From the IMG/VR virus record IMGVR_UViG_3300036886_000048, positions 1-57,034 of that record: a stretch of 57,034 bases of DNA; one strand, given 5' to 3'. Below, one piece after another: positions 1-56,280 of the stretch. This DNA is from a virus (Duplodnaviria; Caudoviricetes). Numbering within the stretch: the stretch's first letter is position 1; each line of letters starts with the position of its first letter. The notes below the pieces were generated by a model that was not told the DNA's origin, did not search any database, and was given only the letters and a program-made list of their open reading frames with translations. The translations under genes and the position numbers were made by a program.

Positions 1-148
1 AACAGGCTTGAGCGGTGACGTAACAGGCTTGAGCGGTGACGTAACAGGCTTGAGCGGTGACGTAACAGGCTTGAGCGGTAACGTAACACACTTGATCGGT
101 GACGTAACAGGCTTGATCGGTGACGTAACGTACTTGAGCGGTAACGTA
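1..148 (+). repeat. 21-bp coding tandem repeat (about 7 units)
   Basis: Unit GGT GAC GTA ACA (GGC/CAC/TAC) TTG (AGC/ATC/CGC). Confidence 0.97.
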
Positions 149-235
149 GACGACTGCGAAATTACCGAAAAAAACCGAACTGACGGGGTTAATGTTTTAG
201 ACATTGTACTGGATAACGACAATGACCCACTTTGA
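1..235 (+). CDS. C-terminal part of the same heptad-repeat protein
   Basis: Same GDVTxLx repeats, then a unique tail GNVDDCEITEKNRTDGVNVLDIV...; stop at 235. Confidence 0.85.
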   Translation, partial: TGLSGDVTGLSGDVTGLSGDVTGLSGNVTHLIGDVTGLIGDVTYLSGNVDDCEITEKNRTDGVNVLDIVLDNDNDPL

Positions 236-425
236 GTTTTCCAAAGAGCATGGTTGCAGTAGTACGCCGTGTCAAGCGCACCACTTGACTTTTGGTGGAA
301 GGTGTATAAACTGCGGTTACGATCCTGAACATCACGGCCTAGCACTGGCTCCTACGAGGGTATTTAACGCCACTAATCGGCGCTGGTATTCTGTTCCACT
401 GGCTGACGAGAAGGCAGGAGACTAA
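222..425 (+). CDS. small hypothetical protein, possible Zn-binding
   Basis: C-x2-H...CINCG; overlaps the end of the upstream gene. Confidence 0.6.
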   Translation: MTHFEFSKEHGCSSTPCQAHHLTFGGRCINCGYDPEHHGLALAPTRVFNATNRRWYSVPLADEKAGD

Positions 426-426
426 A

Positions 427-654
427 ATGCAATGTATTTGCCAAGCATTAAAAACTGAAAACCACCAGCTTAAAGAGACGGTGACATTCTTGCGCGGAGC
501 CATCAAGCAAAGTCTCGAATACGGCAATATCACCGATCCTGTATTATATCACGCCTTCGTTGCCACTGAACCCGCCCCGCTAGGCTACGTGGAGAGCGAA
601 GGGGAATTTAATCCTTTCGTGGTAGAACCTCTTGACAAACCACTGACACTGTGA
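427..654 (+). CDS. hypothetical protein
   Basis: AGGAGA RBS; tight packing. Confidence 0.65.
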   Translation: MQCICQALKTENHQLKETVTFLRGAIKQSLEYGNITDPVLYHAFVATEPAPLGYVESEGEFNPFVVEPLDKPLTL

Positions 655-660
655 AATAAT
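632..660 (+). promoter_or_regulatory. sigma70-type promoter
   Basis: TTGACA-17-AATAAT, followed by ACTTTCAAACAGGAG leader. Confidence 0.7.
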
Positions 661-687
661 ATAGCCACTTTCAAACAGGAGAATGCC

Positions 688-1080
688 ATGAAAACACCTA
701 CGGGACACGCTGGAACAGGCGCAATCCAGAACCACAGTTTAGGCGCAGATTACCCGTTTACTATTGTGGGGATCGACACCGATGTTACTATTCACCAGAA
801 GCGTCATTTTTATCGCGCCACGTTGCTGACTACTGGACAGACATGGCCAACCCGTGAAACTTATGAGGAAGCACACGCCGACATTGCCTTGATGAAACTT
901 ACGCGTGAGATTACCAAGAATTGCGCGGAGTCTACACCTTATCGTATGGGTTACATTACATATACGTCTGGATCACGCACGGGCAATCCTTACACTGCCA
1001 ATGAAAGTGACTACGGCATGTTTGGTAAAGGTCATTATGACGCCTTGAGGCTGGCAGGTTTGGAGGAGGCTACATCGTGA
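688..1080 (+). CDS. early hypothetical protein
   Basis: Promoter plus CAGGAG RBS. Confidence 0.75.
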   Translation: MKTPTGHAGTGAIQNHSLGADYPFTIVGIDTDVTIHQKRHFYRATLLTTGQTWPTRETYEEAHADIALMKLTREITKNCAESTPYRMGYITYTSGSRTGNPYTANESDYGMFGKGHYDALRLAGLEEATS

Positions 1081-1373
1081 GCAACCTTGAATGCAATTGG
1101 AATGAAACCTTAACCGGGATCGACCGGAATAACACCAAACCAATATCTGATCCTGACACGACTGCCGGGTTAGACGGCTGCACTCTTTGGGGGTTAATAC
1201 GCGAATACGTGCAAGCAGAAGCGATGTACCAAAGGCACTACGCTAATGGTGGCCCCGGCTCTTCGATAACCAAAACTGCCGCCGAACAAGTGACACGAAC
1301 AGAGACGGCTGCGCGTGATGCATTTCAAAAACTACTGCCGACTAACGTGGAGCTAAGGGGCGCGCATAAATGA
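1077..1373 (+). CDS. hypothetical protein; C-terminus (TNVELRGAHK) is read through an attC-like arm
   Basis: GGAGG RBS, GTGA overlap with upstream gene. Confidence 0.65.
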   Translation: MSNLECNWNETLTGIDRNNTKPISDPDTTAGLDGCTLWGLIREYVQAEAMYQRHYANGGPGSSITKTAAEQVTRTETAARDAFQKLLPTNVELRGAHK

Positions 1374-1429
1374 CCGAACAGAAAATACCTCCCGCTTCGG
1401 GCGAGTCCCTCTTCAGCGGCGGGTTAGAT
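1340..1429 (-). mobile_element. integron attC-like recombination site
   Basis: Minus strand ATCTAAC CCGCC GCT(G)AAG(A)GGG ... CCC CTT AGC TCCAC GTTAGTC: inverse core, 5-nt spacer, two extrahelical bases, core. Confidence 0.75.
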
Positions 1430-1585
1430 GACACGGTGCGATACTGGCTTTGCTGCGGTAGCACAGTATATCCGCATGGAGAAAAAACGTGCTACGAAGC
1501 GAAGATGGGGCATCCTGAGCATGTGCGATATGGAACGGTAAAGGATCACTCAGAATGGCAAAATAGATTGTCTTCTAACGTTTGA
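1370..1585 (+). CDS. hypothetical cassette protein
   Basis: Starts inside the loop of the first attC-like site and ends (SNV*) in the arm of the second. Confidence 0.6.
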   Translation: MTEQKIPPASGESLFSGGLDDTVRYWLCCGSTVYPHGEKTCYEAKMGHPEHVRYGTVKDHSEWQNRLSSNV

Positions 1586-1636
1586 ATTAAGGGGCAGGCC
1601 GCTTCTGGCCTATCCCGCTCGAATGATGGGTTGTAC
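1573..1636 (-). mobile_element. integron attC-like recombination site (64 bp)
   Basis: Minus strand GTACAAC CCATC ATT(C)GAG(C)GGG ATAGGCC AGAAGC GGCCTG CCC CTT AAT TCAAAC GTTAGAA. Confidence 0.85.
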
Positions 1637-1650
1637 ACCGGGCTACGAAG

Positions 1651-2268
1651 ATGAGCGTAACGAACTACGAAGTGCGACACACTGAAAGACGCGCCATAGC
1701 TGCCTTTATTGAGCAGTGGCACTACTCAGGTAGCATAAACGGGTGCATAGCGGACTATTGTTTTTCGTTGCATGACGGTGAACGGATGATCGGCGCAATG
1801 TTCTACGGGCGCATGGCAATGGCGGGACAGTGGAAACGCTTTGCTGGGCAGGAAAGTGACGTAATCGAACTGCGCCGACTTTGCTGCATAGATGATACAC
1901 CGAAGAATACGGAGAGTTTTTTTATCGGAGCAACATTGCGCTGGCTGAAACGCAACACCCCACACAGGATTGTGGTTAGCTACGCGGATGCGGAGCATGG
2001 GCATACTGGAACGATTTACCGAGCCAGCAACTTTACGCTGGAAGGGAAACGAGCCGGGGCAAGGGTAATACTCTTCAACGGGAAGCGGTATCACGACAAG
2101 GCAATACGCACGAAGTACAAAGGCGAACTAAAGCCATTTGCAGCGAGAATCAAGGCTGCACTAGAAACGGGCGAAGCGGTGTATGCAACAACAGCAGGGA
2201 AGTTTTGCTACACTTTCGCATTACGAAAACCGAAGGTGGGGCTAGGCTCTGCGAAAGGTGAAAAATGA
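1651..2268 (+). CDS. Mom-like (GNAT-fold) DNA modification protein
   Basis: HYSG, ELRRL, KNTESFFI and VSYADxxxGHxGxIYRASNF motifs. Confidence 0.8.
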   Translation: MSVTNYEVRHTERRAIAAFIEQWHYSGSINGCIADYCFSLHDGERMIGAMFYGRMAMAGQWKRFAGQESDVIELRRLCCIDDTPKNTESFFIGATLRWLKRNTPHRIVVSYADAEHGHTGTIYRASNFTLEGKRAGARVILFNGKRYHDKAIRTKYKGELKPFAARIKAALETGEAVYATTAGKFCYTFALRKPKVGLGSAKGEK

Positions 2269-2471
2269 AACTAATTAGATCAATATCTATGTACACAGAC
2301 CATACTTTTCACGGAAAACCAATCGAGACAAGCCGGGTAGACCTCTATTGCGACGAGATTCTAACACCTGAACAAATAGAGATAGAAAAGCACAACCAAG
2401 ACATGAAGCTACGCAGCATGGCCAAGCGGATGCCTCACAGGTACTGGCGTGAAGTGCCTAACGTAAAGTAG
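2265..2471 (+). CDS. hypothetical cassette protein
   Basis: ATGA overlap; ends PNVK* in an attC half-site (GCCTAAC 2456-2462). Confidence 0.6.
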   Translation: MKLIRSISMYTDHTFHGKPIETSRVDLYCDEILTPEQIEIEKHNQDMKLRSMAKRMPHRYWREVPNVK

Positions 2472-2542
2472 GGGGTCTTTTGGTGAATCTAAATTTGGCA
2501 ATTGGAGGACAGGCTGGGTTTTCTACTCGCTGAAAATAATAC

Positions 2543-2570
2543 TTGCTTTATTATTTGGTATGTGTATAAT
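2543..2570 (+). promoter_or_regulatory. sigma70-type promoter
   Basis: TTGCTT-16-TATAAT. Confidence 0.65.
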
Positions 2571-2604
2571 TAGCACATCTAAACAGCAAACCAAGGAGAA
2601 CGAA

Positions 2605-2934
2605 ATGAACTATTTGAACATCGGCTTGGCGGTTAATGACTGCAAACCTAACACAATTGAGGAAACTGTCTCAATTGTTTGCGTGGCAGGCGTAGAACTT
2701 TGTGCAGTTGAGTTACAAGAGTCCGACACAGAAGAAACCCTTGTAATATCCACGTATACCCCGGTGACTGAACAGCAACTCCACGAGATTGCCACGAAGC
2801 TGAACCAAGAGGCGGTTGCTTATTATTGTGGTAAGACTTCCAAAGGTATCTTAGTAGGCCCTAATGCTCACGCATGGGGAGACTTTAACCTAGATCGTTT
2901 TCTGTTTAATACTACGTACGGCTTAGAAACTTGA
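2605..2934 (+). CDS. putative SAM lyase (T3 gp0.3-like); paralogous to a domain of the giant protein
   Basis: AAGGAG RBS; SDTEETLVI...IATKLNQEAVAYY...GILVGP resembles the TEEKT...QDCVL pattern I recall for T3 SAMase. Confidence 0.55.
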   Translation: MNYLNIGLAVNDCKPNTIEETVSIVCVAGVELCAVELQESDTEETLVISTYTPVTEQQLHEIATKLNQEAVAYYCGKTSKGILVGPNAHAWGDFNLDRFLFNTTYGLET

Positions 2935-3103
2935 ACTAAGGGCGATTGATACCTGCAACCTTTCCATTGCACCTGCTAAACTTTTCCAGCTAAACTACCC
3001 TCAATTCGGAATAGTTTAGCTGTCCCAATTTTAGTTTACTAAACTTTAATTGATCCAGACTTCCCGGGTCACAACCACCAGTTAAAAATAATCAGTAAGC
3101 CTA

Positions 3104-3132
3104 TTGACAAACCCGAAAAATGAGAGGATAGT
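3104..3132 (+). promoter_or_regulatory. sigma70-type promoter
   Basis: TTGACA-17-GATAGT, then AACAGGAGGCTATCATG. Confidence 0.65.
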
Positions 3133-3156
3133 TCTACCTAACAACAGGAGGCTATC

Positions 3157-3561
3157 ATGGACACTACAGACGTTTACCGGGTTGAAGATATAGACGGAGC
3201 AGGAGCATTCACTTCAAGACACTTCTCCCTTTGTGACATGTTCGCAGAGTACCAGCTTAACTGGGTATACCCGTTTGCAGTTGAAGATTGCGGAAGGGAA
3301 CCATGTGAAGGCGAACTTCATGCAGTAAAGAGTTTGGAACTGTTGGCTTACTGGTTCCCTGCCGAAGCAGTAGAAGAAATGACAGGTATGGCAAGAATAA
3401 AGCACTACAGGGTTGACAGTGATAATGTAACGCACGGTAAGTTTCAGTTGATATTTGATCCGGTCCGTGCTGAACTGGTTGAAGATTTTCCTGTTTCAAA
3501 GCTGTTCGAACTTGTACCAGACTATCCCGATTTTGAAACCATCATTAGGAGGTTATCATGA
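3157..3561 (+). CDS. early hypothetical protein
   Basis: Strong RBS; VYRVE...G.G...WF...Q pattern. Confidence 0.75.
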   Translation: MDTTDVYRVEDIDGAGAFTSRHFSLCDMFAEYQLNWVYPFAVEDCGREPCEGELHAVKSLELLAYWFPAEAVEEMTGMARIKHYRVDSDNVTHGKFQLIFDPVRAELVEDFPVSKLFELVPDYPDFETIIRRLS

Positions 3562-3713
3562 AATACTTATCTTTGTATACTACGCCTTGCGGCAACGATT
3601 TAGACTTTACATTGACTGCGGAATCAGCATGGAGCAAGATCAAGCCTATATCTGAATGCACACTGGTTCAGACGCGGGTTAGGGTTACGATCCATCACGG
3701 AACCGCTTACTAA
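3558..3713 (+). CDS. 51-aa hypothetical protein (not in ORF track)
   Basis: GGAGGTTATCATGAAA start; MKYLSLYTTPCGND... Confidence 0.6.
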   Translation: MKYLSLYTTPCGNDLDFTLTAESAWSKIKPISECTLVQTRVRVTIHHGTAY

Positions 3714-3724
3714 CGGAGGTTATC

Positions 3725-3865
3725 ATGAAAGTATTCCACATCAAAATGTTGCTTGGAACCGGAGAATTAAAGCATGTTATCCGGGCGGCATACAACAAGG
3801 TCGAGGCAAGCCGTGCTGCATGTCTCGAATTCGATGGAGAACTGATTTACGTTATGGAGGATTGA
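3725..3865 (+). CDS. 46-aa hypothetical protein (not in ORF track)
   Basis: Identical GGAGGTTATCATGAAA start; MKVFHIKMLLG... Confidence 0.6.
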   Translation: MKVFHIKMLLGTGELKHVIRAAYNKVEASRAACLEFDGELIYVMED

Positions 3866-4042
3866 TGCAATGAACTCAGCACTGCCAGTTTTGATAGCCT
3901 GCCTGTTGACGCCTTGCCCGACCACGAAAGAACCTTCCGCCCGGTACAGTCTCAGCACTCAGGCTAGTTCAATCGGCCTCAAGGCAACCGGTTCATTGTC
4001 GGGCTTCAAGCCATACGATCAATTGAGGGTTGCTAAAACCCA

Positions 4043-4071
4043 TTGACAAGTTTACTAAAGTATGGTATAAT
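4043..4071 (+). promoter_or_regulatory. perfect consensus sigma70 promoter
   Basis: TTGACA-17-TATAAT with TG extended -10. Confidence 0.85.
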
Positions 4072-4529
4072 TTAGTTGTGGGAGTTTAACTCCGGGTGAC
4101 TTTAGCAGGTTGCCCGGTTATTTTGTGGGGGTCGGAATGAAAGTGGAATTGATCCGGCTCTTACTGGCCGCTGTCCTCAGTATCGCAAACCATCAAGACT
4201 GCACCGGGGTCGAGGAGTATCGTAAACATGAAGCAAAGTGGCCTCACCACCGGAAGCACCATCCAAAGCCTAAATTCTATGGTTCCCGGCCTCGCTAGAG
4301 GGGCTACAACGAGTTAACGCAAGTCTGGATAGGCTGACCTAGCTTGGGAAATCCCGCACGAACTGTCCACGGTTGTTGGCGATTCTTGAGAACCATTGAC
4401 AAACCACCTAGTCTGCCTAAAAAATAGGCAACAATCACAAAAAATAACTGGTTGATTTTATTAGACCGACATTCCCAAAGTGTCGAATTTTACGGGGTTA
4501 TACCTCAAACTTACTAACAGGAGAACTAA

Positions 4530-5624
4530 ATGGCCTCACCTTCAACTTGGGTTAATCGACAAGCTAACGGACTGCCGTTGTTGGTGGATATGCGCCATGA
4601 CGATGTACCGATAGTCAACCAGTTATCAGCCAACTCATGCTCTGCTAATTCCGCAGTTGACGTGATGGAAATATGGGAAGTATGGCACGGCACGCCTTGC
4701 ACCTTGTCCCGGTTGTTCCAGTATTACAACGAACGGACTTACACTCCGGGCGCACTGAACAGTGACAACGGCGCAGAGTCTGGCAGCGTGTTCAAGTCCG
4801 CTGCTGAATTAGGAGTGTGTCTGGAGTCTACATGGCCTTATAATCTTGCAACCGTCCAGACTAAACCATCTCAGGCAGCGTACATGGAAGCGCAAAGCCA
4901 CAAGATTACCAGTTACAGTATGCTACCGCAGGCACAACTGAAAGTCGCATTGGCTATGGGTTATCCTGTACGAGTAGCCATGAACGTTCGAACCGGCTTC
5001 TTTGACGTGTACGGCAGCAAGTCTCAGCAGACGGCACAATTCGCAACTTACCTTCAAACTCCTGTTGTTGGCGGTCATGATATGGTGATCCTTGGCTATG
5101 ACGCAAGAGATAACACCATCCTGATCCGTAACTCATGGGGGACAGGTTGGGGTGATGGTGGCTACTGTTACATGCCTGAGTCTATCCTACTGCAAGACGA
5201 ATTCAACCTTTGGGTTGTCACCGGGTACAATGGTTACACTATGCCTGCATTCTGGACACCTGACAGTACGCCAGTGTCACAGCCCACGGTTGGTGTTTAT
5301 CTTGGCCCCGGAGAACAGTTTATCTCAGCCTGTCCTGCCATGATATACGGCAACACTCCGAGGGGCATGGTCACACTCCTGAAAGCGGCACGGAACAACG
5401 TACTGGATTCGAACATTGGGACATTGGCATTGCCAGACAGAACACTTGAGGACTTGGGACTTCTCCAGCAGGGAAGTTCACTCGAAGTGCGACTGAACGG
5501 TGAACTACTTGCCAGTTTGAACACATCTAACGGTGCAAGTCACCAGTTGATCCTTGCCGATGGAAACCACGTGTTACTTAGGATTAACGCCATAATGACA
5601 CTGGATGGAACGGTAATTTCGTAA
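4530..5624 (+). CDS. papain-family (C1) cysteine peptidase with C-terminal extension
   Basis: NQ..NSCSAN, GGHDMVILGYD, IRNSWGTGWGDGGY. Confidence 0.9.
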   Translation: MASPSTWVNRQANGLPLLVDMRHDDVPIVNQLSANSCSANSAVDVMEIWEVWHGTPCTLSRLFQYYNERTYTPGALNSDNGAESGSVFKSAAELGVCLESTWPYNLATVQTKPSQAAYMEAQSHKITSYSMLPQAQLKVALAMGYPVRVAMNVRTGFFDVYGSKSQQTAQFATYLQTPVVGGHDMVILGYDARDNTILIRNSWGTGWGDGGYCYMPESILLQDEFNLWVVTGYNGYTMPAFWTPDSTPVSQPTVGVYLGPGEQFISACPAMIYGNTPRGMVTLLKAARNNVLDSNIGTLALPDRTLEDLGLLQQGSSLEVRLNGELLASLNTSNGASHQLILADGNHVLLRINAIMTLDGTVIS

Positions 5625-5640
5625 ATAGTTAAGAAAGTGC

Positions 5641-5669
5641 TTGACATTTGTACAGAATTATGAGATAAT
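5641..5669 (+). promoter_or_regulatory. sigma70-type promoter of the structural operon
   Basis: TTGACA-17-GATAAT, then a ~195-nt structured leader. Confidence 0.75.
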
Positions 5670-5867
5670 ACAGTGCCTCAAGGAGAGGAATAACAGTTTG
5701 CAACAGCAAACGTCAACCGGGACAAGGCCACAACCAAGTCCCAACCGTAACAAGGCAGCTACCACCCCGCGCACAGTGGGACTTCGAAGCTGCCTTTCCC
5801 GCTCCTAAAGCCGCCTTACGAAATCTATACGCTTCACTAATGCTACACCAAAAAGGAGACTTACGCA

Positions 5868-6968
5868 ATGAATATTTTTACAATTGGCGATTCGACTGTT
5901 GCTCACGTCGATATGGTTCTTCCCCCCTCAGTGGGTGGAAAAGACCTGTCAAGGATCATCGGGTACATCGAAAACGCTGGAGTACCGTCTGGAGTTGTTC
6001 CTGACTTCATTGGCCAAAAACTGTTTGATACGACCAACCATAACTTTTATTATGCCTACGGACTGTCTGCCGGGAACTGGCGCACTACCACTTCTATCGC
6101 GCTGAGTGCTGGAGAAGTGGCATTCTTGTCTGGAGTAACTGCCGGAACAGGTACAGTGTCTCAGGCACTTGTACTGGATGCAAGTGGCGCAGTTCAGATG
6201 CCTGCAACCGGGACACTTGGTTTGTCCTATGCCGCAGTGAACGCTGCCGGAACCACTCCGGGAACCTATGCGGCCTTGACACACCAGTTGAACTCCGTGC
6301 TGCTGGCTGATAATACGACGGGTGTCGCACTTCCTGCCGCCGTTGGTGGACAAGCCGTGTACATTCTGAATACTGTCCAAAACAAACGCCTTCAAGTTTC
6401 TCCGGTGGCTTCGGGCAATGACCAGATCAACAGCCTGACTGCAAACACTGGCGAATTTTCACTTGCTGCTGGAAAAGGCGCATGGTTTATTCCTACGTCT
6501 GCAACTCAATGGTATGTTGACCGTTCGGTTGAAAACAAACTTGGTGACAACAACGATGGGGCGACTGCTCCTGAAACAATTACCAAAAAGGCCACGATTA
6601 CCTACACAAACTTGGGTACGGCTGGCAAGGTTGACGTGTTGACCCCTGCTTCGGCAACTGCTCAGTATTACGTTTCGAACGTGGTTCTTGTTGGTGGTGG
6701 AACGAGCTTCGGGCCTACAGGCGACAGACTTGTTTCTTTGACCGATGGAACAACAGTCTGGACTACGATTGCCAATGCTGACCTTGAAGCTGCACCATCC
6801 GTTTCACTGCCGTTCGGCAATGCCAAAGTACCGTATCTTACCGGAACAATTACAACGCCAAGTGCAGCAGGCGCACAGATTTACTTCCAGTACAGTGGAG
6901 GAACAACAGATGAAACCACGGCAGGGTCGATTGACTTTTTTGTTACATTGACCAAAGCAACCGTATAA
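5868..6968 (+). CDS. putative virion structural protein
   Basis: AAGGAG RBS; Thr/Ala/Gly-rich, beta-type composition. Confidence 0.6.
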   Translation: MNIFTIGDSTVAHVDMVLPPSVGGKDLSRIIGYIENAGVPSGVVPDFIGQKLFDTTNHNFYYAYGLSAGNWRTTTSIALSAGEVAFLSGVTAGTGTVSQALVLDASGAVQMPATGTLGLSYAAVNAAGTTPGTYAALTHQLNSVLLADNTTGVALPAAVGGQAVYILNTVQNKRLQVSPVASGNDQINSLTANTGEFSLAAGKGAWFIPTSATQWYVDRSVENKLGDNNDGATAPETITKKATITYTNLGTAGKVDVLTPASATAQYYVSNVVLVGGGTSFGPTGDRLVSLTDGTTVWTTIANADLEAAPSVSLPFGNAKVPYLTGTITTPSAAGAQIYFQYSGGTTDETTAGSIDFFVTLTKATV

Positions 6969-7083
6969 TAATGGGGATGCCTCAGGGGGGAAAAACCCAT
7001 AAGTACCCCGGAACGGGTTTTACATCATGACTTTTTTGACATTCCTCAAAGATTTATTCACATTCAAGACAAAGGATATACCA

Positions 7084-7362
7084 ATGCTTACAATCCATAA
7101 CGTAATTGCAGAAAAAATTGCTGCCGCTACCGCGAAGGCAGCCACACTTACCGCAGAAGCAGAAGCAGTTGCCACACAGGAAATTGCCGCTGCAAGGGAC
7201 AAACTTGCAAAAGTGAAGGCCGAAATCGAACCCTCAGTCTCTGCCGAAATTGTTTCACTCAAAAATGACTTGGCAAACGTGGAAGCTGCCGGGGAAACAT
7301 TTTTTAATAAGGGTGTTGACGAACTCAAATCCCTGTTTGATGCAGTGAGCAAACATCTATGA
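7084..7362 (+). CDS. Ala-rich helical hypothetical protein
   Basis: AAGGA RBS before ATG 7084 (the ORF track starts at 7027). Confidence 0.65.
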   Translation: MLTIHNVIAEKIAAATAKAATLTAEAEAVATQEIAAARDKLAKVKAEIEPSVSAEIVSLKNDLANVEAAGETFFNKGVDELKSLFDAVSKHL

Positions 7363-7420
7363 AAACCCTTTCAGGCGGTTGCGGGAAGCCCACACCTAAA
7401 CCTCCCAAAAAATAATTCAA

Positions 7421-7714
7421 ATGTTCGTCCGGTTAAAGTTTATAGTCGCGGACTATTGCAAAAAAGTTTTAACCGCCCGGAACAACCGCGATTGGAGTGC
7501 CACAAAACTTATTGTCCTGATGGGTTCTGGTGTGATGATGTTCGAATTCGTCTACTCCCATTCACAGGAATATTTGCAGTTGGGATTAGGCCTCAGTGCT
7601 TTGATTGCAGCGTTGGCTGGCAAATACTTCGTGGAAAATTCCAACTCGGATGAAGAACCTCGTACTGGTGGTGGTACAGACCACGACCATCCAAGAATAG
7701 ACAAGGATGCTTAA
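7421..7714 (+). CDS. putative holin-like membrane protein
   Basis: Two hydrophobic segments and a charged C-tail. Confidence 0.45.
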   Translation: MFVRLKFIVADYCKKVLTARNNRDWSATKLIVLMGSGVMMFEFVYSHSQEYLQLGLGLSALIAALAGKYFVENSNSDEEPRTGGGTDHDHPRIDKDA

Positions 7715-8170
7715 ATGAGAATATCCAAAGATTCAATAACCCGGATTGCTGCCGACACTACCCAATATTCACTTGGGGATGTTATTACAAATACGGTTGC
7801 CTCAGTATTAAGGTTTGCTACAAACAATAGTTCTGGTTCAATCAATTCTGCAATACTGGTCGATTCGGTAATTGCTGGTGGAACCAAACTTCAAGCTGAT
7901 TTGCTTTTATATTCGGCTGCTCCGACAATCGCAGCAGACAATGCCGCGTTTAGTCCGACTGCCGCACAGGAAACAAACTTGGTTGCAGTAGTTCCGTTTT
8001 TGACAGCAAATTTTGTGGGAGCCGTAACCGCAGGGCATACGGTAAGTGTTCTGACTGCCCCAATTCCATTTGTAGCTCCTGACGGAGTTTTGTACGGAGT
8101 TTTAGTTGCGCGTAGTACGTATACGCCAACTGGAGCAGAGGTAATTACTATCAATTTAGGTATAGTGTGA
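7715..8170 (+). CDS. putative virion protein
   Basis: Beta-rich; contiguous in the operon. Confidence 0.55.
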   Translation: MRISKDSITRIAADTTQYSLGDVITNTVASVLRFATNNSSGSINSAILVDSVIAGGTKLQADLLLYSAAPTIAADNAAFSPTAAQETNLVAVVPFLTANFVGAVTAGHTVSVLTAPIPFVAPDGVLYGVLVARSTYTPTGAEVITINLGIV

Positions 8171-8427
8171 TGACTGTTCCGAATGGTTGGCAACTCGATA
8201 AGACCGTTTCGATTGGGCATATTGTTACCACATTGACAATTATCATATCTTTGTTTGTCTGGATTGAGAGAGTTGACTTACGGCTCATTGTTTTAGAAAC
8301 AGAGATTGTCCAAATGAAGGGTAATGAATCCCGGTTAGAAGCCACTCAGAAAGAAAACGTTGACGAACTAAAATCCATTCTGTTACGAATTGAACAGAAA
8401 CTGGACGACAAGGCCGATAAAAAATGA
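8167..8427 (+). CDS. membrane-anchored coiled-coil protein
   Basis: One TM segment, then coiled coil ending IEQKLD. Confidence 0.6.
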   Translation: MMTVPNGWQLDKTVSIGHIVTTLTIIISLFVWIERVDLRLIVLETEIVQMKGNESRLEATQKENVDELKSILLRIEQKLDDKADKK

Positions 8428-10583
8428 GTGTTTATTATCCCGACACGGTTGCAGGAACGGCGCAATCCCAACCTTCCATGCAACAAAACGCTGCCGGGGA
8501 TACTTTTGCTGTTCCTCCGCAAGTACCCAAACAGGGAATGATTCTACCCTATCAGAGTACGGACACTGTTTTATTGTTGGCAGATCGGTACGCCCGTGGA
8601 ATTGAAGGAATGGCTAAGTGGGCGGAAGAAGCAAAGAAATGCACGGACATGACAGAAGGTGCTCAATGGACACCTGAAGCACTGGCCGTATTGGAAGCAC
8701 AGGATCGTAAAGCGTTTAAGTGGAACGAGATTGCTCCAATCGTCCGGTTGGTATTGGGGTATCAGCGCAGTACAAAAACCGATTTGAAGATTACCCCAAG
8801 TTGGCAAGGTTCAGCAACTACTCAGACTGCCGATGCGCTGACCTCTATCCTGAAACAGTTGGCTGAGAATTGCCAGCAATCGTATGTGGATACCGAAGTA
8901 TTCATGGATGGGATTATAACAGGTCGGGGTTTTTATGATGCCCGACTGAATTTTGAAGATAATGAATTGGGTGAAGTTTTCATTACATCCAGTGATCCGT
9001 TTAGTACGATACTTGACCCTGATGGGGATCAATACGACTTGAACGAATTGAATTATATCATTGACGATAGATGGGTTACGATTGACGAAGTCGAATCCGT
9101 GTATGGGCCGGATGCAGGAATGATGCTCAGACCGTTGTTCAGTGCCGCAGGCATGGCTGGATTACCGAATAGTTCTCTCTCTGCCCTTTTACAGACTGCT
9201 GCACCTTGGCGGTATTTTGGCGGTGCAAAAGAAACATTTGGAAGTCGTACACTTGAAAGTTATTATTTGCAATCATATGATCCTGCCAGAAAGAACATCC
9301 GGCTTTTGGATTGTCAGTCTTACGTTCGATGCCGTCGCAGGTACTGGATTGACCTCGAAACTGGACGCAAGGAGCCTGTAGATGATTCGTGGACTCCGCA
9401 ACAAGTTCAAGCCGTGTTGGATTGGAGTAACCAGAAATATCAGGCGATGGGCAAGCAAAGTCCTATCAGGTTGGTGGTAAGACCGGGGAAAAGGATTCGC
9501 TGGACTACGATGGTTGGCGACATTGTGGTTTATGACGGCTGGAGTCCGTACAAAACGTACACCAAGATCGGTTTCTTCCCGTGGTTTCGCCGGGGAAAAA
9601 CGATGGGCATGGTGTCCGACATGATCGAACCTCAAGAGGCTATCAACAAAATGGGCAGTTCTGAAATGGATATTGTTGCCCGTTCCGCAAATAGCGGTTG
9701 GAAATATCACCATGACTCACTTACCGCCGAAGAAAAAGATCGGTTGCAAGAGGAAGGTGCTTCTCCCGGATACAATATGGAATGGAAGGGCAGTGTTCCT
9801 CCAGAACGAATCGAACCCGGTGCGCCTCCCACACAACTAGAACATTTGCAATTAAGGAACAGAGATTCGTTGAAAAGTATTTCGGGAATTAACGATTCTG
9901 CCCTTGGACAAATTGACCGGGTGCAATCAGGTGTAGCGGTGGAAGCCAGACAGCGGCAGTCAGTTATATCTGTTCAGGTATACATGGATAACTTTAGTAG
10001 AAGTAAGGAGTTACTTGGGCGTAAGGAACTCGAACTCATACAGGATCACTACACCGAAACCCGCACGTATCGTCTGATGGGTGATGATGGGAAGAACCAG
10101 CAGGTAACGATCAACGAAAAACTGGAAAGTGGTGAGATTCGGAACGATGTGACGAACGGTGAATACAAGTTTGTTGTGGATGAAACCCCGTTGGCAAAAT
10201 CCTTCGCTTCGGCTCAGTTCGATGAAACAATGAGTTTGATACAGAACGGCGTTTTGAATATCCAGATACCTGCCGTGCGTGACCAGATCATCGACTTGTC
10301 CAGTTTGCCAAACAAAGACCAGTTGAAACAGGCTATTCAACAATGGCAACAGTCTCAGGCTTCTGCAATGCAGTCACAAAACAAACGTCCTCCCTCGGAG
10401 TCTCTCAATTATAAAGATGCACCCGATGATGTGAAACGGCAGATCGAACAACAGGCAGGATTACAACCCTCTCAGTTACAGCCGCAACAGGCCGTGGCAG
10501 GGCAACCGCAAGGTGGCGGGACTCCTACTGCACAACCATCACAACAACCCGCGCAAAACGCGCCTATCGCGGTTCAGGGGTAA
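8424..10583 (+). CDS. portal protein (P22-like)
   Basis: G.QW...N.I.P.V..VLG, DGIITGRG, PQEAINK, SGVAVEARQ; Gln/Pro-rich tail. Confidence 0.9.
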   Translation: MSVYYPDTVAGTAQSQPSMQQNAAGDTFAVPPQVPKQGMILPYQSTDTVLLLADRYARGIEGMAKWAEEAKKCTDMTEGAQWTPEALAVLEAQDRKAFKWNEIAPIVRLVLGYQRSTKTDLKITPSWQGSATTQTADALTSILKQLAENCQQSYVDTEVFMDGIITGRGFYDARLNFEDNELGEVFITSSDPFSTILDPDGDQYDLNELNYIIDDRWVTIDEVESVYGPDAGMMLRPLFSAAGMAGLPNSSLSALLQTAAPWRYFGGAKETFGSRTLESYYLQSYDPARKNIRLLDCQSYVRCRRRYWIDLETGRKEPVDDSWTPQQVQAVLDWSNQKYQAMGKQSPIRLVVRPGKRIRWTTMVGDIVVYDGWSPYKTYTKIGFFPWFRRGKTMGMVSDMIEPQEAINKMGSSEMDIVARSANSGWKYHHDSLTAEEKDRLQEEGASPGYNMEWKGSVPPERIEPGAPPTQLEHLQLRNRDSLKSISGINDSALGQIDRVQSGVAVEARQRQSVISVQVYMDNFSRSKELLGRKELELIQDHYTETRTYRLMGDDGKNQQVTINEKLESGEIRNDVTNGEYKFVVDETPLAKSFASAQFDETMSLIQNGVLNIQIPAVRDQIIDLSSLPNKDQLKQAIQQWQQSQASAMQSQNKRPPSESLNYKDAPDDVKRQIEQQAGLQPSQLQPQQAVAGQPQGGGTPTAQPSQQPAQNAPIAVQG

Positions 10584-10586
10584 ATT

Positions 10587-10706
10587 ATGAAATCCGGACT
10601 TGAAGGATTTGCAGGATTCGCCGGGTGTGTAATCGTAATCATTGCAGCAGTGGTTTTGACGAGTTGCATTTCGCTTTCGTCAATATTTAAGAAAAAATTC
10701 AAATGA
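10587..10706 (+). CDS. 39-aa membrane peptide, possible lipoprotein
   Basis: Hydrophobic stretch ending VLTSC; ATGA overlap with the next gene. Confidence 0.4.
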   Translation: MKSGLEGFAGFAGCVIVIIAAVVLTSCISLSSIFKKKFK

Positions 10707-11242
10707 GCTATCGTAAAAACATAAAGCATTTGCACGATTTACCTGACCATTGGCTTACTGCCCGTGCAGTGGAATGGCTTCTCAGGAACATTAAAACCTG
10801 TTGGTGGATTATGAGTTTTACTGCCGATGGCACACCAGTTTCAGCTTCGTTCGGGAACGGGGTAAGGGGGATTGGAGATAACCCCAACGGTAAAACGTTG
10901 GATGGAAAAGATGCCAAACTGAAAACTTGGCATCCTCCAATTGAAAAACAACAGTTCGCCAAAGAGATATGCGAATATCTTAATCTGTCATGTAATGGCG
11001 GCGGGGCATGGATGGCCGGATGGGTTGACCTCACAGTTGAACAGGCGTTTTACTTAATTTGGAAAGACTTCGATGGAGATATACAACTGGACATCGAGTT
11101 TCCGCAGTCGTCCGACGAACTGATGAACAAATGGAATCCTGATAGTTTTGTAAATTTAGCACTGACTGCCATTGAAACTTGGCAAGAACAACGAGTAGCA
11201 CTTGCACTCAGGCCGGATCAAATAACATCGTTAGCACACTAA
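10703..11242 (+). CDS. hypothetical protein
   Basis: 179-aa ORF in operon. Confidence 0.7.
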   Translation: MSYRKNIKHLHDLPDHWLTARAVEWLLRNIKTCWWIMSFTADGTPVSASFGNGVRGIGDNPNGKTLDGKDAKLKTWHPPIEKQQFAKEICEYLNLSCNGGGAWMAGWVDLTVEQAFYLIWKDFDGDIQLDIEFPQSSDELMNKWNPDSFVNLALTAIETWQEQRVALALRPDQITSLAH

Positions 11243-11243
11243 A

Positions 11244-11771
11244 ATGACAATCTGGATTAAGTTGATTATTTTCTTGGCGATTATTGCCGTTGCGTCAGGA
11301 ACCGCATGGCATCTCAGAGGTATTGAAGCGGATCGGGACATAGGCGTTTTAAAACAGCAAGTTCAAGGCGAGATAATCAAACAGCAAGATTTGGTCGCAA
11401 AATATACTCAAACTTTACAGATAGTTGCAAACGGTGTGGAGGAACAAACCAATGTTGATACAAAAAAACACAATGCTGAAATTGCTTATTATAAGCAGCT
11501 TGTCAATCAGTCTGGAGGCTTGTACGACAACGGCACTTCCGTCCGTAAAGGGGATAGTGCAACTGCCGGAAATTCCGGTAGCGATAACCCAACCTCCAGC
11601 GGGACAGGACTTCCAGAAATCGTTGATCGACCACTTTCAGAAGAAAACACTGCCTTCCTCCTCGACCAAGCAAACAAAGCCGACAGAGTCGTTGACCAAT
11701 ACCTCACCTGTCAACAATACGTCAAAAAATTAACAGATTTTTCTAAACTGCATCAAGGGGACCCGAAATGA
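11244..11771 (+). CDS. Rz-like spanin
   Basis: N-terminal TM, coiled coil, LS..FL...A.KAD.V...CQ.Y tail. Confidence 0.65.
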   Translation: MTIWIKLIIFLAIIAVASGTAWHLRGIEADRDIGVLKQQVQGEIIKQQDLVAKYTQTLQIVANGVEEQTNVDTKKHNAEIAYYKQLVNQSGGLYDNGTSVRKGDSATAGNSGSDNPTSSGTGLPEIVDRPLSEENTAFLLDQANKADRVVDQYLTCQQYVKKLTDFSKLHQGDPK

Positions 11772-12058
11772 AAGAAATGAATTGCAAGCAATGCAAAGAC
11801 AAGGGCGCAGACGAATCCGCAAAACACGAAGGAACCGAATCCAAAAAGGTTGAGGCCGGAGAACCTGCTGAACCGGGTGATCCTAAAAAGAACTGGATTG
11901 CCGGAGCCATTGGAAAACCGGGTGCGCTTCATACCCAAATGGGTGTTCCTTCCGGGGAAAAAATTCCAACCGGAAAACTGGATGCCGCTGCAAAGAATAA
12001 AGGATTGTTGGGTAAACGCGCACGGTTGGCGATTATCCTGAGTAAGTTTCATCACTAA
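11768..12058 (+). CDS. small basic phage protein
   Basis: KNWIAGAIGKPGALH...GEKIP...GKRARLA. Confidence 0.7.
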   Translation: MKEMNCKQCKDKGADESAKHEGTESKKVEAGEPAEPGDPKKNWIAGAIGKPGALHTQMGVPSGEKIPTGKLDAAAKNKGLLGKRARLAIILSKFHH

Positions 12059-12188
12059 GTTTGGCGGAAGGCATTCCGCGAACGTGTCGCCTACGTTAAA
12101 GGGCGTATGAGAACCGAACTCTAAATCGGGAAAACCAGTCGCCGTGGTAATCCGGGCGTGTCGTTAGTCTATCGAAAAGGACAAGAAA

Positions 12189-13211
12189 ATGCCTCAAGAA
12201 CTATCACCAGAAGAAGTAGCGTTGCAGGAGTCTACAGCAGCTTTAGCAAAAGAGGAAGCGGATCGTTTGGCAAAAACCGATGAAAAATTCGGGGATCAGT
12301 CGAAACAATCAGCACAGGTTGCGGAAGCAAAGATTGAAGAAACCAAAACCGAGCCAGTAGAAGTAAACATAGGCGAAACCGAATCTGTTGCAAAAGTAGT
12401 TGAAAAACAACGTGGCAATCCCGTCGATGCAATCGTGGCTTTACGCAAGCAATTGCAAGAGGAACGTGAGCAAAGAATCTTGGTACAAGGACAAAATCAA
12501 GTTCTGTCCCAAGTATTGCAATCGGGAGGACAACCCCAACAACAGCAACAACGAGTTGATCCGGCAGTATTGCTGAACCAGATCGAAGATGCCAAGTTGG
12601 AAGCGGCAGACAAGGTGGACAAAGGCGAGTTGACCGTCCGTGAATATGAGCAAACCCGTTCGCAACTCGAACGCAATGCCCGTCAGATCGAACAGCAACT
12701 TTACTTGGAGCAACAGTCGAGACAACAACCTGTGCAAGTAGCGAAACAAGATGATTTGTATCTCGCCCAACAGACTGAGGAACTGGCTAATGCGTATCCT
12801 TTCTTGGAGGAATTATCTGCCGATGATTTGGAACCTTTTCACCAACTTGCTTTGCGGCAGGCTGTAAAAGAGGGAAACCCGATTCAGTCAGGGCCACTCG
12901 AAACACTGCGACTACGTACACTGATGGTGCAACTTGCGGCAAAAGTGTATCAACCTGAGGAAACGAAAGCCGCTGCAAGTGTGACACAACCGAGTTCTGC
13001 CGATGCCCAAAAAGCGTTAGATGCAAAACTGGCCATGCAAGCGACAATGCCCCCGGACACTAGCAAACTAGGTAGCGGAAGTTCAGCCGCAGGAATGACA
13101 GAAGCAGAATTGGAACGCAGGTTGACTGCACCCAATTTGACTGACGCGCAAGCGGAAGCGTTGCTCTCCAGCATTTCCCCGGCACTCCGCGAAAAACTGA
13201 GCATACGTTAA
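12189..13211 (+). CDS. capsid scaffolding protein
   Basis: Acidic, Gln-rich coiled coil directly upstream of the capsid gene. Confidence 0.75.
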   Translation: MPQELSPEEVALQESTAALAKEEADRLAKTDEKFGDQSKQSAQVAEAKIEETKTEPVEVNIGETESVAKVVEKQRGNPVDAIVALRKQLQEEREQRILVQGQNQVLSQVLQSGGQPQQQQQRVDPAVLLNQIEDAKLEAADKVDKGELTVREYEQTRSQLERNARQIEQQLYLEQQSRQQPVQVAKQDDLYLAQQTEELANAYPFLEELSADDLEPFHQLALRQAVKEGNPIQSGPLETLRLRTLMVQLAAKVYQPEETKAAASVTQPSSADAQKALDAKLAMQATMPPDTSKLGSGSSAAGMTEAELERRLTAPNLTDAQAEALLSSISPALREKLSIR

Positions 13212-13244
13212 GTGTGCTTGTAATTTAAACGATAGGAGAATAAC

Positions 13245-14354
13245 ATGGGCTTTACTGCATTTGGCGCGTTGAGTGCCTTGCAAAAAAGAGTCTGGTTGGA
13301 TCAAGTCTCTGTTCAGGGTCGTCACCGTGCCTTCTGGCTGGCGAACGGCTTTGTAAGCAATGACGAAACCAACACAGGCTTGCCTGTTACGAAAGTTACC
13401 AAACTGAATGAAACTGAGCGCGGGACAGAAGCGGTTATGCCGTTGATTCCTGACTTGGATATTAACTCAGGTGTGGTTGGTGACAACCGTTTGGAAGGGA
13501 ACGAAGCCGTACTTGGCGCAGATTCCCAAACCATTCGTATTGACCAACTTCGTAATGGTGTGAAATCAAAAGGGGCGATGGCTGAACAGGAAACTGTTAT
13601 CCAGTTTCGCGCACAAGCACAGGACAAACTGGCATTTTGGCTGGCTGACGTTAAGGACGAACTGATGTTCTTGACCGTGGCTGGACGTGCCTATACCCTG
13701 ACAACTGGTGGCGCAACTCGCGGTACATCGCAATTGTCAAGTTTGAAATTTGCCAACGACGTTGTTGCAGCTTCCACTCACCGTATTATTTACGGTGGTG
13801 CAGCTACAACCGAAGGAACCCTGACAGCGGCAGACACTATGACATGGAATCTGGTTGTGAAATCGGCAGCGTTTGCAAAACGCAAAGCCATACAGCCTAT
13901 CCGTCAAGGTGGACGTGAATATTATGCAATCGTAATGTCCACAGAGCAAATGCGCGACTTGGTTCAATCTGCCGATTACAAGGCAATTGTGTCTCAAGCC
14001 GAAGCGCGTGGTTCCGACAATCCTCTGTTCGCAAATGCGAAAGTGGTCATTCAAGGTGTTGTGTTGTATGAACACCAAAAAGTGTATCACACTCTGGATG
14101 GTACAGGTTGGGGTGCAGCTAATGCAATCCACGGCGCACAAGCAGTTCTTCTGGGGGCGCAAGCACTCGGTATCTGTGAATTGCGTGGGAAAGCACAAAT
14201 GGCAGAATCCGATAACACCGACTACGGCAATCAGCCGGGTATTGCGATCAAGAATATCTTCGGTATTCTGAAACCGCAGTTTAAATCGAAATACGATAGC
14301 AATGCAGTTGAAGATGCCGCAGTAGTTAGCATCAAAACCGCTGCTGCCGCCTAA
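13245..14354 (+). CDS. major capsid protein (N4 gp56/DUF4043-like)
   Basis: GVVGDNRLEGNE, IDQLRNGV, NPLF, LLGAQAL, DYGN. Confidence 0.9.
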   Translation: MGFTAFGALSALQKRVWLDQVSVQGRHRAFWLANGFVSNDETNTGLPVTKVTKLNETERGTEAVMPLIPDLDINSGVVGDNRLEGNEAVLGADSQTIRIDQLRNGVKSKGAMAEQETVIQFRAQAQDKLAFWLADVKDELMFLTVAGRAYTLTTGGATRGTSQLSSLKFANDVVAASTHRIIYGGAATTEGTLTAADTMTWNLVVKSAAFAKRKAIQPIRQGGREYYAIVMSTEQMRDLVQSADYKAIVSQAEARGSDNPLFANAKVVIQGVVLYEHQKVYHTLDGTGWGAANAIHGAQAVLLGAQALGICELRGKAQMAESDNTDYGNQPGIAIKNIFGILKPQFKSKYDSNAVEDAAVVSIKTAAAA

Positions 14355-14369
14355 TAGGAGGAAACGAAA

Positions 14370-15062
14370 ATGTCGCAATTTGAACGTGTAAGTTTCCAAC
14401 TGTATGACCAAGACGGTATTGCAATCAATGCAACTGGCGGTCAGGTACAAGTAAACACTGTATCTACCTGTCATAAGGCGACACTGTATGACAAAAATGG
14501 GGTTGCAGCAACTAACCCTGTTACGTTGTCCACAGGTGGTGCGGAATTCTACGTTTTGAGTTCTGTATCCACGGTTGACCTTTACATTGACGCGCCTCAC
14601 GGTCAGTACGCAGTAAAAAAAGGCGTAGTTGTAGGCGGTTCTTACAACTACAAAGTCAACACTAACGAAAAACAGCAAGTGTATGTGATACCTTTCAGTA
14701 TTACTGACGCCGCTGCGACTGTCGAACATGATACAGGGGTTGTTCTTCCTGCCCATGCTCAAGTTGGTTCCAAGTACCAAGGTGCAACAATCCGTACCGT
14801 GACGCTTGAATCTGGCAAAACAATCGACGTTGGCACACTCTCTAGTCAAGCTGGAGGCGATGCAAACGGTTACGTCAATGCCAATTCGTTGACAAATGCT
14901 GCACAGTTGATTATCACGGAAGGTGCGTTATACACAACCGCAGGCGAAGCCGCGTTTGTTGATACCAATCCTGCTGCTGTAAATATCTCGTATACCTTGA
15001 GTTCTGCTACCAGTGTTGCGGAAGGGTTCATCATTCTTCCTGTGATTTTGGAAACAGCATAA
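14370..15062 (+). CDS. putative capsid decoration/minor structural protein
   Basis: Directly follows the capsid gene; AGGAGG RBS. Confidence 0.6.
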   Translation: MSQFERVSFQLYDQDGIAINATGGQVQVNTVSTCHKATLYDKNGVAATNPVTLSTGGAEFYVLSSVSTVDLYIDAPHGQYAVKKGVVVGGSYNYKVNTNEKQQVYVIPFSITDAAATVEHDTGVVLPAHAQVGSKYQGATIRTVTLESGKTIDVGTLSSQAGGDANGYVNANSLTNAAQLIITEGALYTTAGEAAFVDTNPAAVNISYTLSSATSVAEGFIILPVILETA

Positions 15063-15066
15063 AAGG

Positions 15067-15095
15067 TTGACTTGATAGGTAATTTGTGATACAAT
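15067..15095 (+). promoter_or_regulatory. sigma70-type promoter
   Basis: TTGACT-17-TACAAT. Confidence 0.65.
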
Positions 15096-15150
15096 GCAGG
15101 GGTAGTATTGAGAAGTATTATCTCTGCATTTAACCACAAGGAGTTTAACT

Positions 15151-15642
15151 ATGGAACAAGTACAAAACAAAGAAGATGTTGGATACGTCATTGATACGCT
15201 TGCCGTTGCTGATAAACGTATTCACAAGATACCTGTCTCTTTTGACAGTCAGAACAAACCCGTTTCGTTCAAACATTATAGTTTGAGCGCGAACGAGGAA
15301 ACAGAAATGCCGATAAATCATGCCATGTATTTCTTGGTGGATAGTGCATTTATCGTAAAAGATGGAAACAAGGTAGTTCTCAAAGCTCTCGCCAATCAAG
15401 AGCAGGCGACCCACATAGCGATACCGGAAGGATTCGTGCTGGCTGAGTATTCGGAACTGAACCGTGACGCCTTAGTGACCCGCTGCAAGGTCTTGCCGGG
15501 GTCGGCACACATCCATCCTGTAAAAACCAAAGTGGACGAGTTGATTGCTTTTTTGAAATCGGCTCAACCAGTTGTTGCGGATACAAAAAAGTTCGATGAA
15601 GTCGGAATAACGGCTCTCGACAAAATGTTCGGTGACGCATAA
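15151..15642 (+). CDS. hypothetical protein
   Basis: AAGGAG RBS. Confidence 0.7.
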   Translation: MEQVQNKEDVGYVIDTLAVADKRIHKIPVSFDSQNKPVSFKHYSLSANEETEMPINHAMYFLVDSAFIVKDGNKVVLKALANQEQATHIAIPEGFVLAEYSELNRDALVTRCKVLPGSAHIHPVKTKVDELIAFLKSAQPVVADTKKFDEVGITALDKMFGDA

Positions 15643-15652
15643 TGAATGACGG

Positions 15653-18525: not shown

Positions 18526-18568
18526 TTAAGGCAAACACAAATGATCCAGACCGCCACAACCAGTATCA

Positions 18569-18640
18569 GCTAATGGTGCGACTGGAACCAACGGCGGCCC
18601 CGGCGGAGAGAGCTACGCAATGATTCAATACAACGCATAA
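18569..18640 (+). pseudogene. orphan Gly-rich C-terminal remnant of another fibre gene
   Basis: ANGATGTNGGPGGESYAMIQYNA* with no in-frame start (stop at 18542). Confidence 0.45.
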
Positions 18641-18649
18641 GGATAAATC

Positions 18650-19042: not shown

Positions 19043-19043
19043 A

Positions 19044-56088: not shown

Positions 56089-56280
56089 ATGAAAAACCAT
56101 ACACCAGTTGAGCGTACTGGCCCGACGACCAACGGACAAACCAAGTTAGGCGAAAACATTGCGACTGTCTTGGGATTGCGTACCAATGAATTCGGCAGGT
56201 ATAATACAACCGTTGGCGACAAAACGGCACTCGGCCTGTACCTGACAATCAGGCGGATCGTGGAGGGGGAAACATTATGA
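56089..56280 (+). CDS. early hypothetical protein
   Basis: Strong RBS; GRY.T..GDKTALGL. Confidence 0.7.
   Translation: MKNHTPVERTGPTTNGQTKLGENIATVLGLRTNEFGRYNTTVGDKTALGLYLTIRRIVEGETL

Follow-up and report, generated by a model that had tools for sequence, protein, structure and literature searches.

A 57-kb phage record from peat raises the question of how repeats resembling integron attC sites come to lie between small genes of its early operon, with those genes facing the opposite way from the genes of bacterial cassettes. Integrons are known as bacterial devices, and according to recent work their cassettes store anti-phage defences. The window, by which we mean the whole stretch of DNA that was analysed (57,034 bases), is the entire IMG/VR virus record, linear and with a completeness estimate of 72%. 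Its identified genes include a portal, a major head protein, a terminase, a family-A DNA polymerase, a helicase and a primase, as well as the recombination proteins Erf-like, exonuclease and NinB/Orf. No integrase of any kind was found among the 59 open reading frames (ORFs) scanned against PHROGs and Pfam, and a six-frame search of the 57-kb record, at its 72% completeness, returned no match to the integron integrase model TIGR02249 at E ≤ 0.01. The sites lie in an operon of five tightly packed ORFs (Table 1), which is probably driven, as a lead only, by a sigma-70-like promoter upstream of 688-2471.

Table 1. Features of the early operon, its attC sites and its cassettes (positions in the window)
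Feature	Position	Strand	Description
Sigma-70-like promoter (putative)	632-660	+	TTGACA, 17 bases, AATAAT; consensus scan, 11/12 matches; such sites not above shuffles in this region
Early operon, five tightly packed ORFs	688-1080, 1077-1373 (98 aa), 1370-1585 (71 aa), 1651-2268 (Mom-like), 2265-2471 (68 aa)	+	ORF list
98-aa ORF, left flank of array	1077-1373	+	Ends ...PTNVELRGAHK-stop; last 9 codons (NVELRGAHK) and stop in S1 5′ arm and loop
attC S1 (bottom strand on +)	1340-1429	+	Model R1 25.1 bits, E 2.5e-4 (span 1343-1426); 13/13 aligned pairs standard
S1 R′ box	1340-1346	+	GACTAAC; predicted crossover between A1345 and C1346
S1 L′	1353-1361	+	Pairs with L′′ 1405-1417
S1 variable loop	1362-1404	+	Model alignment; ATGA 1370-1373 inside
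S1 L′′	1405-1417	+	Unpaired T1406, T1410, C1414
S1 R′′ box	1423-1429	+	GTTAGAT
Cassette A, 233 bases, crossover to crossover	1346-1578	+	S1 and 71-aa gene body; block shared with L083
71-aa gene	1370-1585	+	Begins MTEQKIPPASGESLFSGGLDD, ends ...SSNV-stop; start codon in S1 loop; residues 1-20 encoded by loop, L′′ and R′′; stop TGA 1583-1585 just past S2 crossover
attC S2 (bottom strand on +)	1573-1636	+	Model R1 41.8 bits, E 7.5e-9; 4/16 pairs broken
S2 R′ box	1573-1579	+	TTCTAAC; predicted crossover between A1578 and C1579
S2 R′′ box	1630-1636	+	GTTGTAC
Compound cassette B, 883 bases	1579-2461	+	S2, Mom-like gene, attC remnant, 68-aa gene; bounded by S2 and S3 crossovers
Mom-like DNA modification gene, 205 aa	1651-2268	+	Pfam PF25680 E 4.8e-35; PHROG 1384 E 2.3e-60
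attC remnant, 17 bases	2231-2247	+	Fused to the end of Mom; retains the 3′ end (L′′/R′′) of a fourth attC, with GCTAGGC for GTTAGGC
68-aa gene	2265-2471	+	ATGA overlap with Mom at 2265-2268; ends ...VPNVK-stop across S3 crossover
S3, truncated attC	2456-2478	+	R′ box and part of L′ only; predicted crossover between A2461 and C2462

Elsewhere in the record, positions 1-150 hold about seven tandem copies of a 21-base unit, which in one frame, open from the record edge to 235, read as a heptad repeat (TGLSGDV...). After the tail genes lies a giant ORF of 3,114 aa (27962-37306, +), which may encode an injected multi-domain protein; its only matches are a GGDEF-like stretch (residues 692-832, Pfam 4.7e-11), a lysin-like stretch and a PHROG 11722 stretch (residues 2009-2109). 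The PHROG 11722 family recurs in a small early gene directly after the array (2605-2934, +), which is preceded by a promoter-like TTGCTT-17-TATAAT at 2543-2571, identified by eye, and has a sub-threshold Pfam match to S-adenosylmethionine lyase (E 0.0051, 17.2 bits; cut-off 28), suggesting, together with Mom, an anti-restriction neighbourhood. Relatives of the phage as a whole were sought by megablast of positions 1-20000 against phage records, with 0 matches, and through the portal, with a relative whose layout differs.

The repeat within the operon, CTAACGT-N4-6-TARGGGG, occurs three times on the + strand (1342, 1575 and 2458) versus 0 times in 100 shuffles, a count made with a motif that was derived from the same three sites; by itself, CTAACGT shows no enrichment (7 occurrences in the window versus 5.9 expected). 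CTAACGT is always read xCT AAC GTx at the ends of three genes, giving TNV..., SNV-stop and PNVK-stop, and TARGGGG, 4-6 bases later, falls in three different phases, so what repeats is a DNA element rather than a motif of the proteins. Promoters of a phage RNA polymerase, either of T7 type or of N4 hairpin type, were considered on account of TAAGGGG and the 3,114-aa ORF, and were rejected: the copies number only three and lie within a 1.1-kb stretch, and nothing in the giant ORF matches a polymerase.

On the bottom strand of an attC site, R′ carries AAC (5′-RYYYAAC-3′) and is complementary to R′′ (5′-GTTRRRY-3′), the arm across from AAC holds the extrahelical bases, and the crossover separates the second A of AAC from its C (Nivina 2016). 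The R boxes of S1 agree with this definition at 6/7 and 7/7 positions and form five standard pairs plus a G-T, and those of S2 agree at 6/7 positions each and form just four standard pairs plus a G-T. Both sites have an L box with extrahelical bases opposite AAC, of 9 pairs in S1 (1353-1361 with 1405-1416, all three unpaired bases lying on the 3′ arm) and of 7/9 pairs in S2. When folded as single strands, the two sites do no better than shuffled sequence: the minimum free energy (MFE) structure of the + strand is the attC hairpin for S1 (z −0.30; with flanks +0.51) and retains the loop hairpin only for S2 (z −0.50; with flanks −0.28), compared with z −5.7 and −6.7 for bacterial sites of the family described below and −3.2 and −3.8 for sites in the metagenome contig L086.

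The family to which these sites belong was identified through a metagenome-assembled genome (MAG) of the Gallionellaceae, G001, in which an array adjoins an integron integrase on contig C4 (TIGR02249, 478.6 bits versus a cut-off of 265) and a pattern search located a cluster of sites on contig C20. In the array, a site of the form RYYYAAC ... GTTRRRY follows each cassette gene. Eight sites of this genome, both integrase-linked and others, and no phage sites, were used to build covariance model R1. In their alignment, the R box comprises 7 pairs and the L box 9, with three unpaired bases on one arm; the unpaired T, G and G of the consensus occupy the same columns as the extra bases of S1, and 93.7% of the cells in this structure are paired versus 35-57% with partner columns slid. 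An insertion sequence (IS110-like, 358-aa transposase; L103 4550-6070 and L098 6800-8350) lies inside attC sites of this genome and splits the array over contigs C4 and C20. Insertion into attC is a habit of the attC-targeting IS110/IS1111 group.

Model R1 recognizes S1 and S2, with 146 bases between the two matches. It also gives 15 matches in G001 itself, four each in the metagenome contigs L086 and L087, which carry a homologue of the 68-aa gene and contribute four more sites of the same architecture, one in contig L083, and matches in 102/121 genomes of G001's family, with 0 matches at E ≤ 1 in about 580 kb of unrelated control loci (L002-L085, L083 apart). A site in viral contig L110 matches S2 at 94% identity over 64 bases, and the central part of S2 is, by eye, nearly identical to an attC of the integrase-linked MAG array (L103 4032-4091). 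By these comparisons, S1 and S2 are true relatives of integron attC sites, in the family of Gallionellaceae chromosomal integrons, a membership that points to the Gallionellaceae as the likely host lineage of the phage. A search of G001 itself found no Mom. A further weak R1 match in the window, far from the array (56235-56303, − strand; 15.1 bits, E 0.13), is probably due to chance.

The remaining traces in the array are fragments. S3 retains only the first ~20 bases of an attC: its similarity to an intact L086 site (3195-3257) covers that site's 5′ arm and stops at window position 2478. Model R1 does not detect S3 at E ≤ 10. Window 2231-2478 aligns as a whole to L086 2967-3217 at 87%, and L086 2920-2983 is again an intact site (48 bits), of which the remnant at the end of Mom would preserve the 3′ end. 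With two model matches close together and no integron integrase nearby, the locus is a CALIN, defined by at least two attC sites close together without such an integrase (Qi 2023, PMC9892861). A complete integron comprises an integrase, attI and a cassette promoter, and no integrase was found in this 72% complete record.

Orientation sets these sites apart from bacterial ones. On the + strand of the window, AAC belongs to the 5′ arm of S1, whose 3′ arm carries the extra bases left unpaired; in the G001 array, the same attC reading lies on the strand opposite the cassette genes, from which the integrase diverges. The + strand is thus the canonical bottom strand, and the phage genes are antisense to those of textbook cassettes. 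In a textbook cassette the gene is on the attC top strand with its attC downstream; here all three cassette genes are on the bottom-strand side with the attC upstream. Judged from the ORFs and their conservation, the window cassettes are mirror images of textbook ones, in which attC precedes each gene as a leader and would in part be read as protein. The sequence-only reading of this locus had proposed attC-like sites antisense to the genes, and the R1 matches on the + strand, the extra bases on the 3′ arm and the comparison with the MAG array all bear it out. It was also right that a stop and a start overlap as ATGA inside the S1 loop, as delimited by the model alignment, and that genes end SNV-stop and PNVK-stop in attC arms, as the 71-aa and 68-aa genes do. 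Of the three sites, S1 and S2 stand by model R1, and the third (2456-2478) is reduced to a truncated arm.

The junction at S1 illustrates how closely site and genes would be joined. The stop of the 98-aa ORF (TGA 1371-1373) and the start of the 71-aa gene (ATG 1370-1372) share the ATGA, and S1 contains everything from the predicted ribosome-binding site to codon 20 of the 71-aa gene, its start codon included. The sole homologue of the 71-aa protein, P0002 from L083 (83% identity), has the same ATG and stays in frame, its indels being multiples of three, which supports the start at 1370. Because the predicted AA/C crossover splits a codon of the gene upstream, whatever sequence adjoins it would supply each gene's final residues and stop; the 71-aa protein ends SSNV-stop in the window versus SSNVSYTPAKITE-stop in L083. 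The predicted 98-aa protein has no homologue but itself among 5.8 billion proteins, and no relative in the viral contigs. Mom starts 58 bases after the AAGGGG of S2 and ends ...VGLGSAKGEK-stop, its last nine residues (GLGSAKGEK) being encoded, by comparison of this tail with L086, partly by the attC remnant and partly by the following gene's leader. Eight homologues of the 68-aa protein were found, 3/8 ending PNV or PNA plus 0-2 residues and 5/8 otherwise; the family has no match in the viral contigs or in 301 genomes of G001's family.

Eighty Mom loci share the Mom coding sequence only, without an attC site. The closest Mom relative (L002, 88% identity) has CTAACCC on both flanks (3937-3948 and 4586-4640), and a hairpin-containing stretch after its Mom gene resembles an attC in top-strand orientation; model R1 finds none there. 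The pattern GGGTTNNNCACNNGCTACGAAG gave two viral matches, both inside coding sequence of an unrelated phage and read as chance.

The mirrored layout extends beyond this phage. A consensus pattern identified 22 viral contigs with the family, containing 72 R1 matches that, within each contig, all lie on one strand. When the direction of each cassette was assigned by its longest ORF, a crude rule that left 42/102 cassettes undecided, the viral cassettes were 20 antisense, 4 sense and 25 ambiguous (n = 49; L120, a duplicate of L112, gives 3 of the 25 ambiguous segments) and the bacterial cassettes of G001 and G033 were 3 antisense, 33 sense and 17 ambiguous (n = 53). Among those decided, 20/24 viral versus 3/36 bacterial cassettes are antisense (Fisher p = 3.3e-9), in a contrast between two bacterial genomes only and a viral set chosen by one family's pattern. 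In the same samples, a stop in the frame of AAC falls within 3 codons of it in 37/74 viral versus 1/49 bacterial sites (p = 1.3e-9), and sites of at least 80 bases make up 14/74 versus 0/49 (p = 7.5e-4). Read along the bottom strand, 20/75 sites have the stop of the upstream ORF at +10 (AAC GTN stop) and 17/75 have it at +3 (the TAA of the R box). A stop/start overlap in the variable loop recurs in four long sites, as ATGA (the window and L127), GTGA (L117) and TAATG (L086), and in the 5/5 sites examined, these four and that of L083, the R′′ box is read as G/R-L. Five other viral records with arrays, one of them complete with terminal repeats, have no integron integrase above cut-off. On these sequence counts, the mirrored layout is general in phages of the sampled attC family.

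Translation of the sites themselves is less uniform than the sequence-only reading supposed. Its claim that the arms are translated would hold for S1, judged from ORFs and conservation; in L083, the 5′ arm of the S1 copy is intergenic and untranslated, and S2 and most viral sites are likewise intergenic, the stop falling within codons 1-4 of the site and the next start usually following ~17-30 bases later. The further proposal, that protein bodies are swapped onto a fixed translational coupling, is not supported in that form: the attC, with its predicted ribosome-binding site and start, travels with the downstream gene, as seen in the block that the window shares with L083.

That block provides the clearest view of a mobile unit. 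L083 is a 2777-base contig of the uncultured Gallionellaceae MAG G001 with phage-like genes, including an RNA ligase (PHROG 968). Window 1344-1581 corresponds to L083 2445-2681 at 91% identity over 241 bases, the only block shared between the two by blastn and tblastx. It consists of S1, the gene and the next core, and ends within 2-3 conserved bases of both predicted AA/C crossovers; on sequence grounds, it is exactly the unit that an integron integrase would excise. Two substitutions in the L083 copy of S1 break pairs without compensation. The left flank in L083 is not an attC by model R1, and AAC is present at both joints, which fits integrase-mediated insertion outside att sites. With no attC in the left flank, homologous exchange is ruled out as the source of this unit in L083.

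Other breakpoints are less tidy. In Logan contigs of runs X4 and X6, from two other studies, a Mom gene of ~94% identity ends 3 bases after window position 2238 at an S1-like arm, the reading of which would give ...VYNVELRG. By this comparison, Mom is a cassette of its own in these relatives, and a deletion in the present phage has fused it to the next cassette. Breakpoints inside sites and away from the crossover occur at 2478 (S3), 1365 (X6) and 1588 (an X3 hybrid). Contigs of run X3 over 1575-1632 contain an S2-like attC at higher depth with at least three different upstream and two different downstream flanks, and one contig joins an S1-like 5′ arm to the remainder of S2 at 1588; from these assemblies, the sites themselves appear as mosaics in natural populations. 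Excision joints numbered 0 in assembled contigs aligned to the window, a count that is uninformative either way, contigs being unable to show rare joints. As read from its sequence, the array in the present phage is eroding: one site is truncated, one is cut to 17 bases, the two remaining hairpins are weak and there is no integrase.

We consider it probable that the locus is an integrase-less attC cluster within an early operon, made of sites of the Gallionellaceae family, and that its mirror-image cassettes were exchanged via a host integrase and are now eroding. The attC bottom strand would be the coding strand, each gene running up to or across the AA/C of the next site. A host integron integrase working on the folded + strand would most likely have put the cassettes together and moved them from phage to phage, a step that we infer, and the array would then have eroded in the present phage by truncation of S3, by the deletion that fused Mom to the next cassette and by weakening of its hairpins. 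The sites could instead be mere patches of homology, repeats of ~60 bases between which phage recombination proteins shuffle genes with no integron integrase. We regard this as unlikely, although the window encodes Erf-like, exonuclease and NinB/Orf proteins, the breakpoints at 2478, 1365 and 1588 lie inside sites, and Mom and the 68-aa gene are fused in an 8-base overlap (2231-2238) between two similarity blocks. Exchange between repeats does not account for a unit in L083 that ends at the crossover on both sides, one of them next to a flank without an attC to pair with, and homology alone would not preserve what the viral copies keep, namely the complete attC layout, its extra bases confined to a single arm, and, in L086, folds that are significant; the matches within any contig are, moreover, all on one strand.

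Less probable still is a selected function at the RNA level, with the sites serving as processing signal, stabiliser, weak terminator or translational coupler, and recombination as history only. The bottom strand is indeed the mRNA-sense strand, the L′ arm is Shine-Dalgarno-like (GAGGGG or AAGGGG), the viral sites have gained in-frame stops and start codons, and attC sites are thought to contain weak terminators (Qi 2023, PMC9892861). No T run follows the hairpins, however, and a scan of the + strand found neither a terminator nor a sigma-70 promoter within the sites; Rfam, run over the whole window, matched a tRNA and nothing else; the AAGGGG of S2 has no start codon in reach, given where Mom starts; and the cassette-shaped units common to unrelated contigs would be left unexplained. 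We give almost no credence to the idea that the attC likeness arose by chance or from a shared C-terminal peptide motif ([STP]NV), although the lack of enrichment of CTAACGT and the unexceptional fold energies would favour it: it is refuted by R1 matches at E 7.5e-9 and 2.5e-4 with 0 control matches. The identity of S2 to the L110 site, the near-identity of its central part to the L103 site and TARGGGG falling in three phases count against it as well.

Short hairpin repeats between small early phage genes have a known parallel. In T4-type phages, promoter-early stem-loop repeats, recombined by homology, shuffle small early genes. The window resembles that system in having such repeats among genes of that kind, with modules exchanged there; it differs in that its sites are related to attC, have a defined crossover and delimit a cassette unit of integrase type. 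Sedentary chromosomal integrons (contigs C4 and C20 of G001 and the arrays of G033) share with the phage the attC family, with its R box, its L box with unpaired T and G and its variable loop. The bacterial arrays have an integrase, attI, sense genes (33/36), folds of z ~ −6 and post-AAC stops in 1/49 sites, and the phage copies reverse these features. A single cassette with one attC and non-attC flanks, as in L083, resembles integrase insertion outside att sites (Loot preprint, 10.1101/2022.09.11.507474), which concerns textbook cassettes in bacterial genomes, its abstract mentioning neither a phage context nor mirrored orientation.

The closest precedent is the report of 17 CALINs in phages, in which IntI1 recombined 5/6 tested phage attC sites with attI1, the cassettes of two virulent phages were oriented as is typical in bacterial arrays and a third phage had divergent sites (Qi 2023, PMC9892861). 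Those clusters are alike in having at least two attC sites, no integrase and DNA-modification cargo, there a DNA methyltransferase, that could counter restriction; antisense genes, post-crossover stops and starts in the loop are not described in the abstract and section 3.4 of that study. A full-text literature search turned up no account of phage attC sites that are both antisense and translated; the supplements of Qi 2023 may list orientations. Clusters of attC sites in phages have been known since 2023, as ordinary cassettes.

A wider possibility, which we put forward tentatively, is that phages of integron-bearing bacteria keep a mirror-image cassette pool of their own, in which attC has been reshaped into translation units, either by an in-frame stop shortly past the crossover or by a hairpin that encloses ribosome-binding site, start codon and leader peptide, and the host integrase shuffles early counter-defence genes such as Mom from one phage to another, as in a market. 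If this is true, the reversed polarity would also work as a filter: host cassettes landing in a phage array, and phage cassettes landing in the host's, would face the wrong way and stay silent. If the reversal is systematic, phages would not just be carrying stray bacterial cassettes but running a parallel cassette economy on the host's recombinase; the signs of it here are sites adapted to protein reading and cassette-shaped units common to unrelated phages. It would amount to a new route of gene exchange in the arms race between phages and their hosts. The attC family would also serve as a marker of host lineage, here the Gallionellaceae, and so offer a new means of assigning hosts to uncultured phages.
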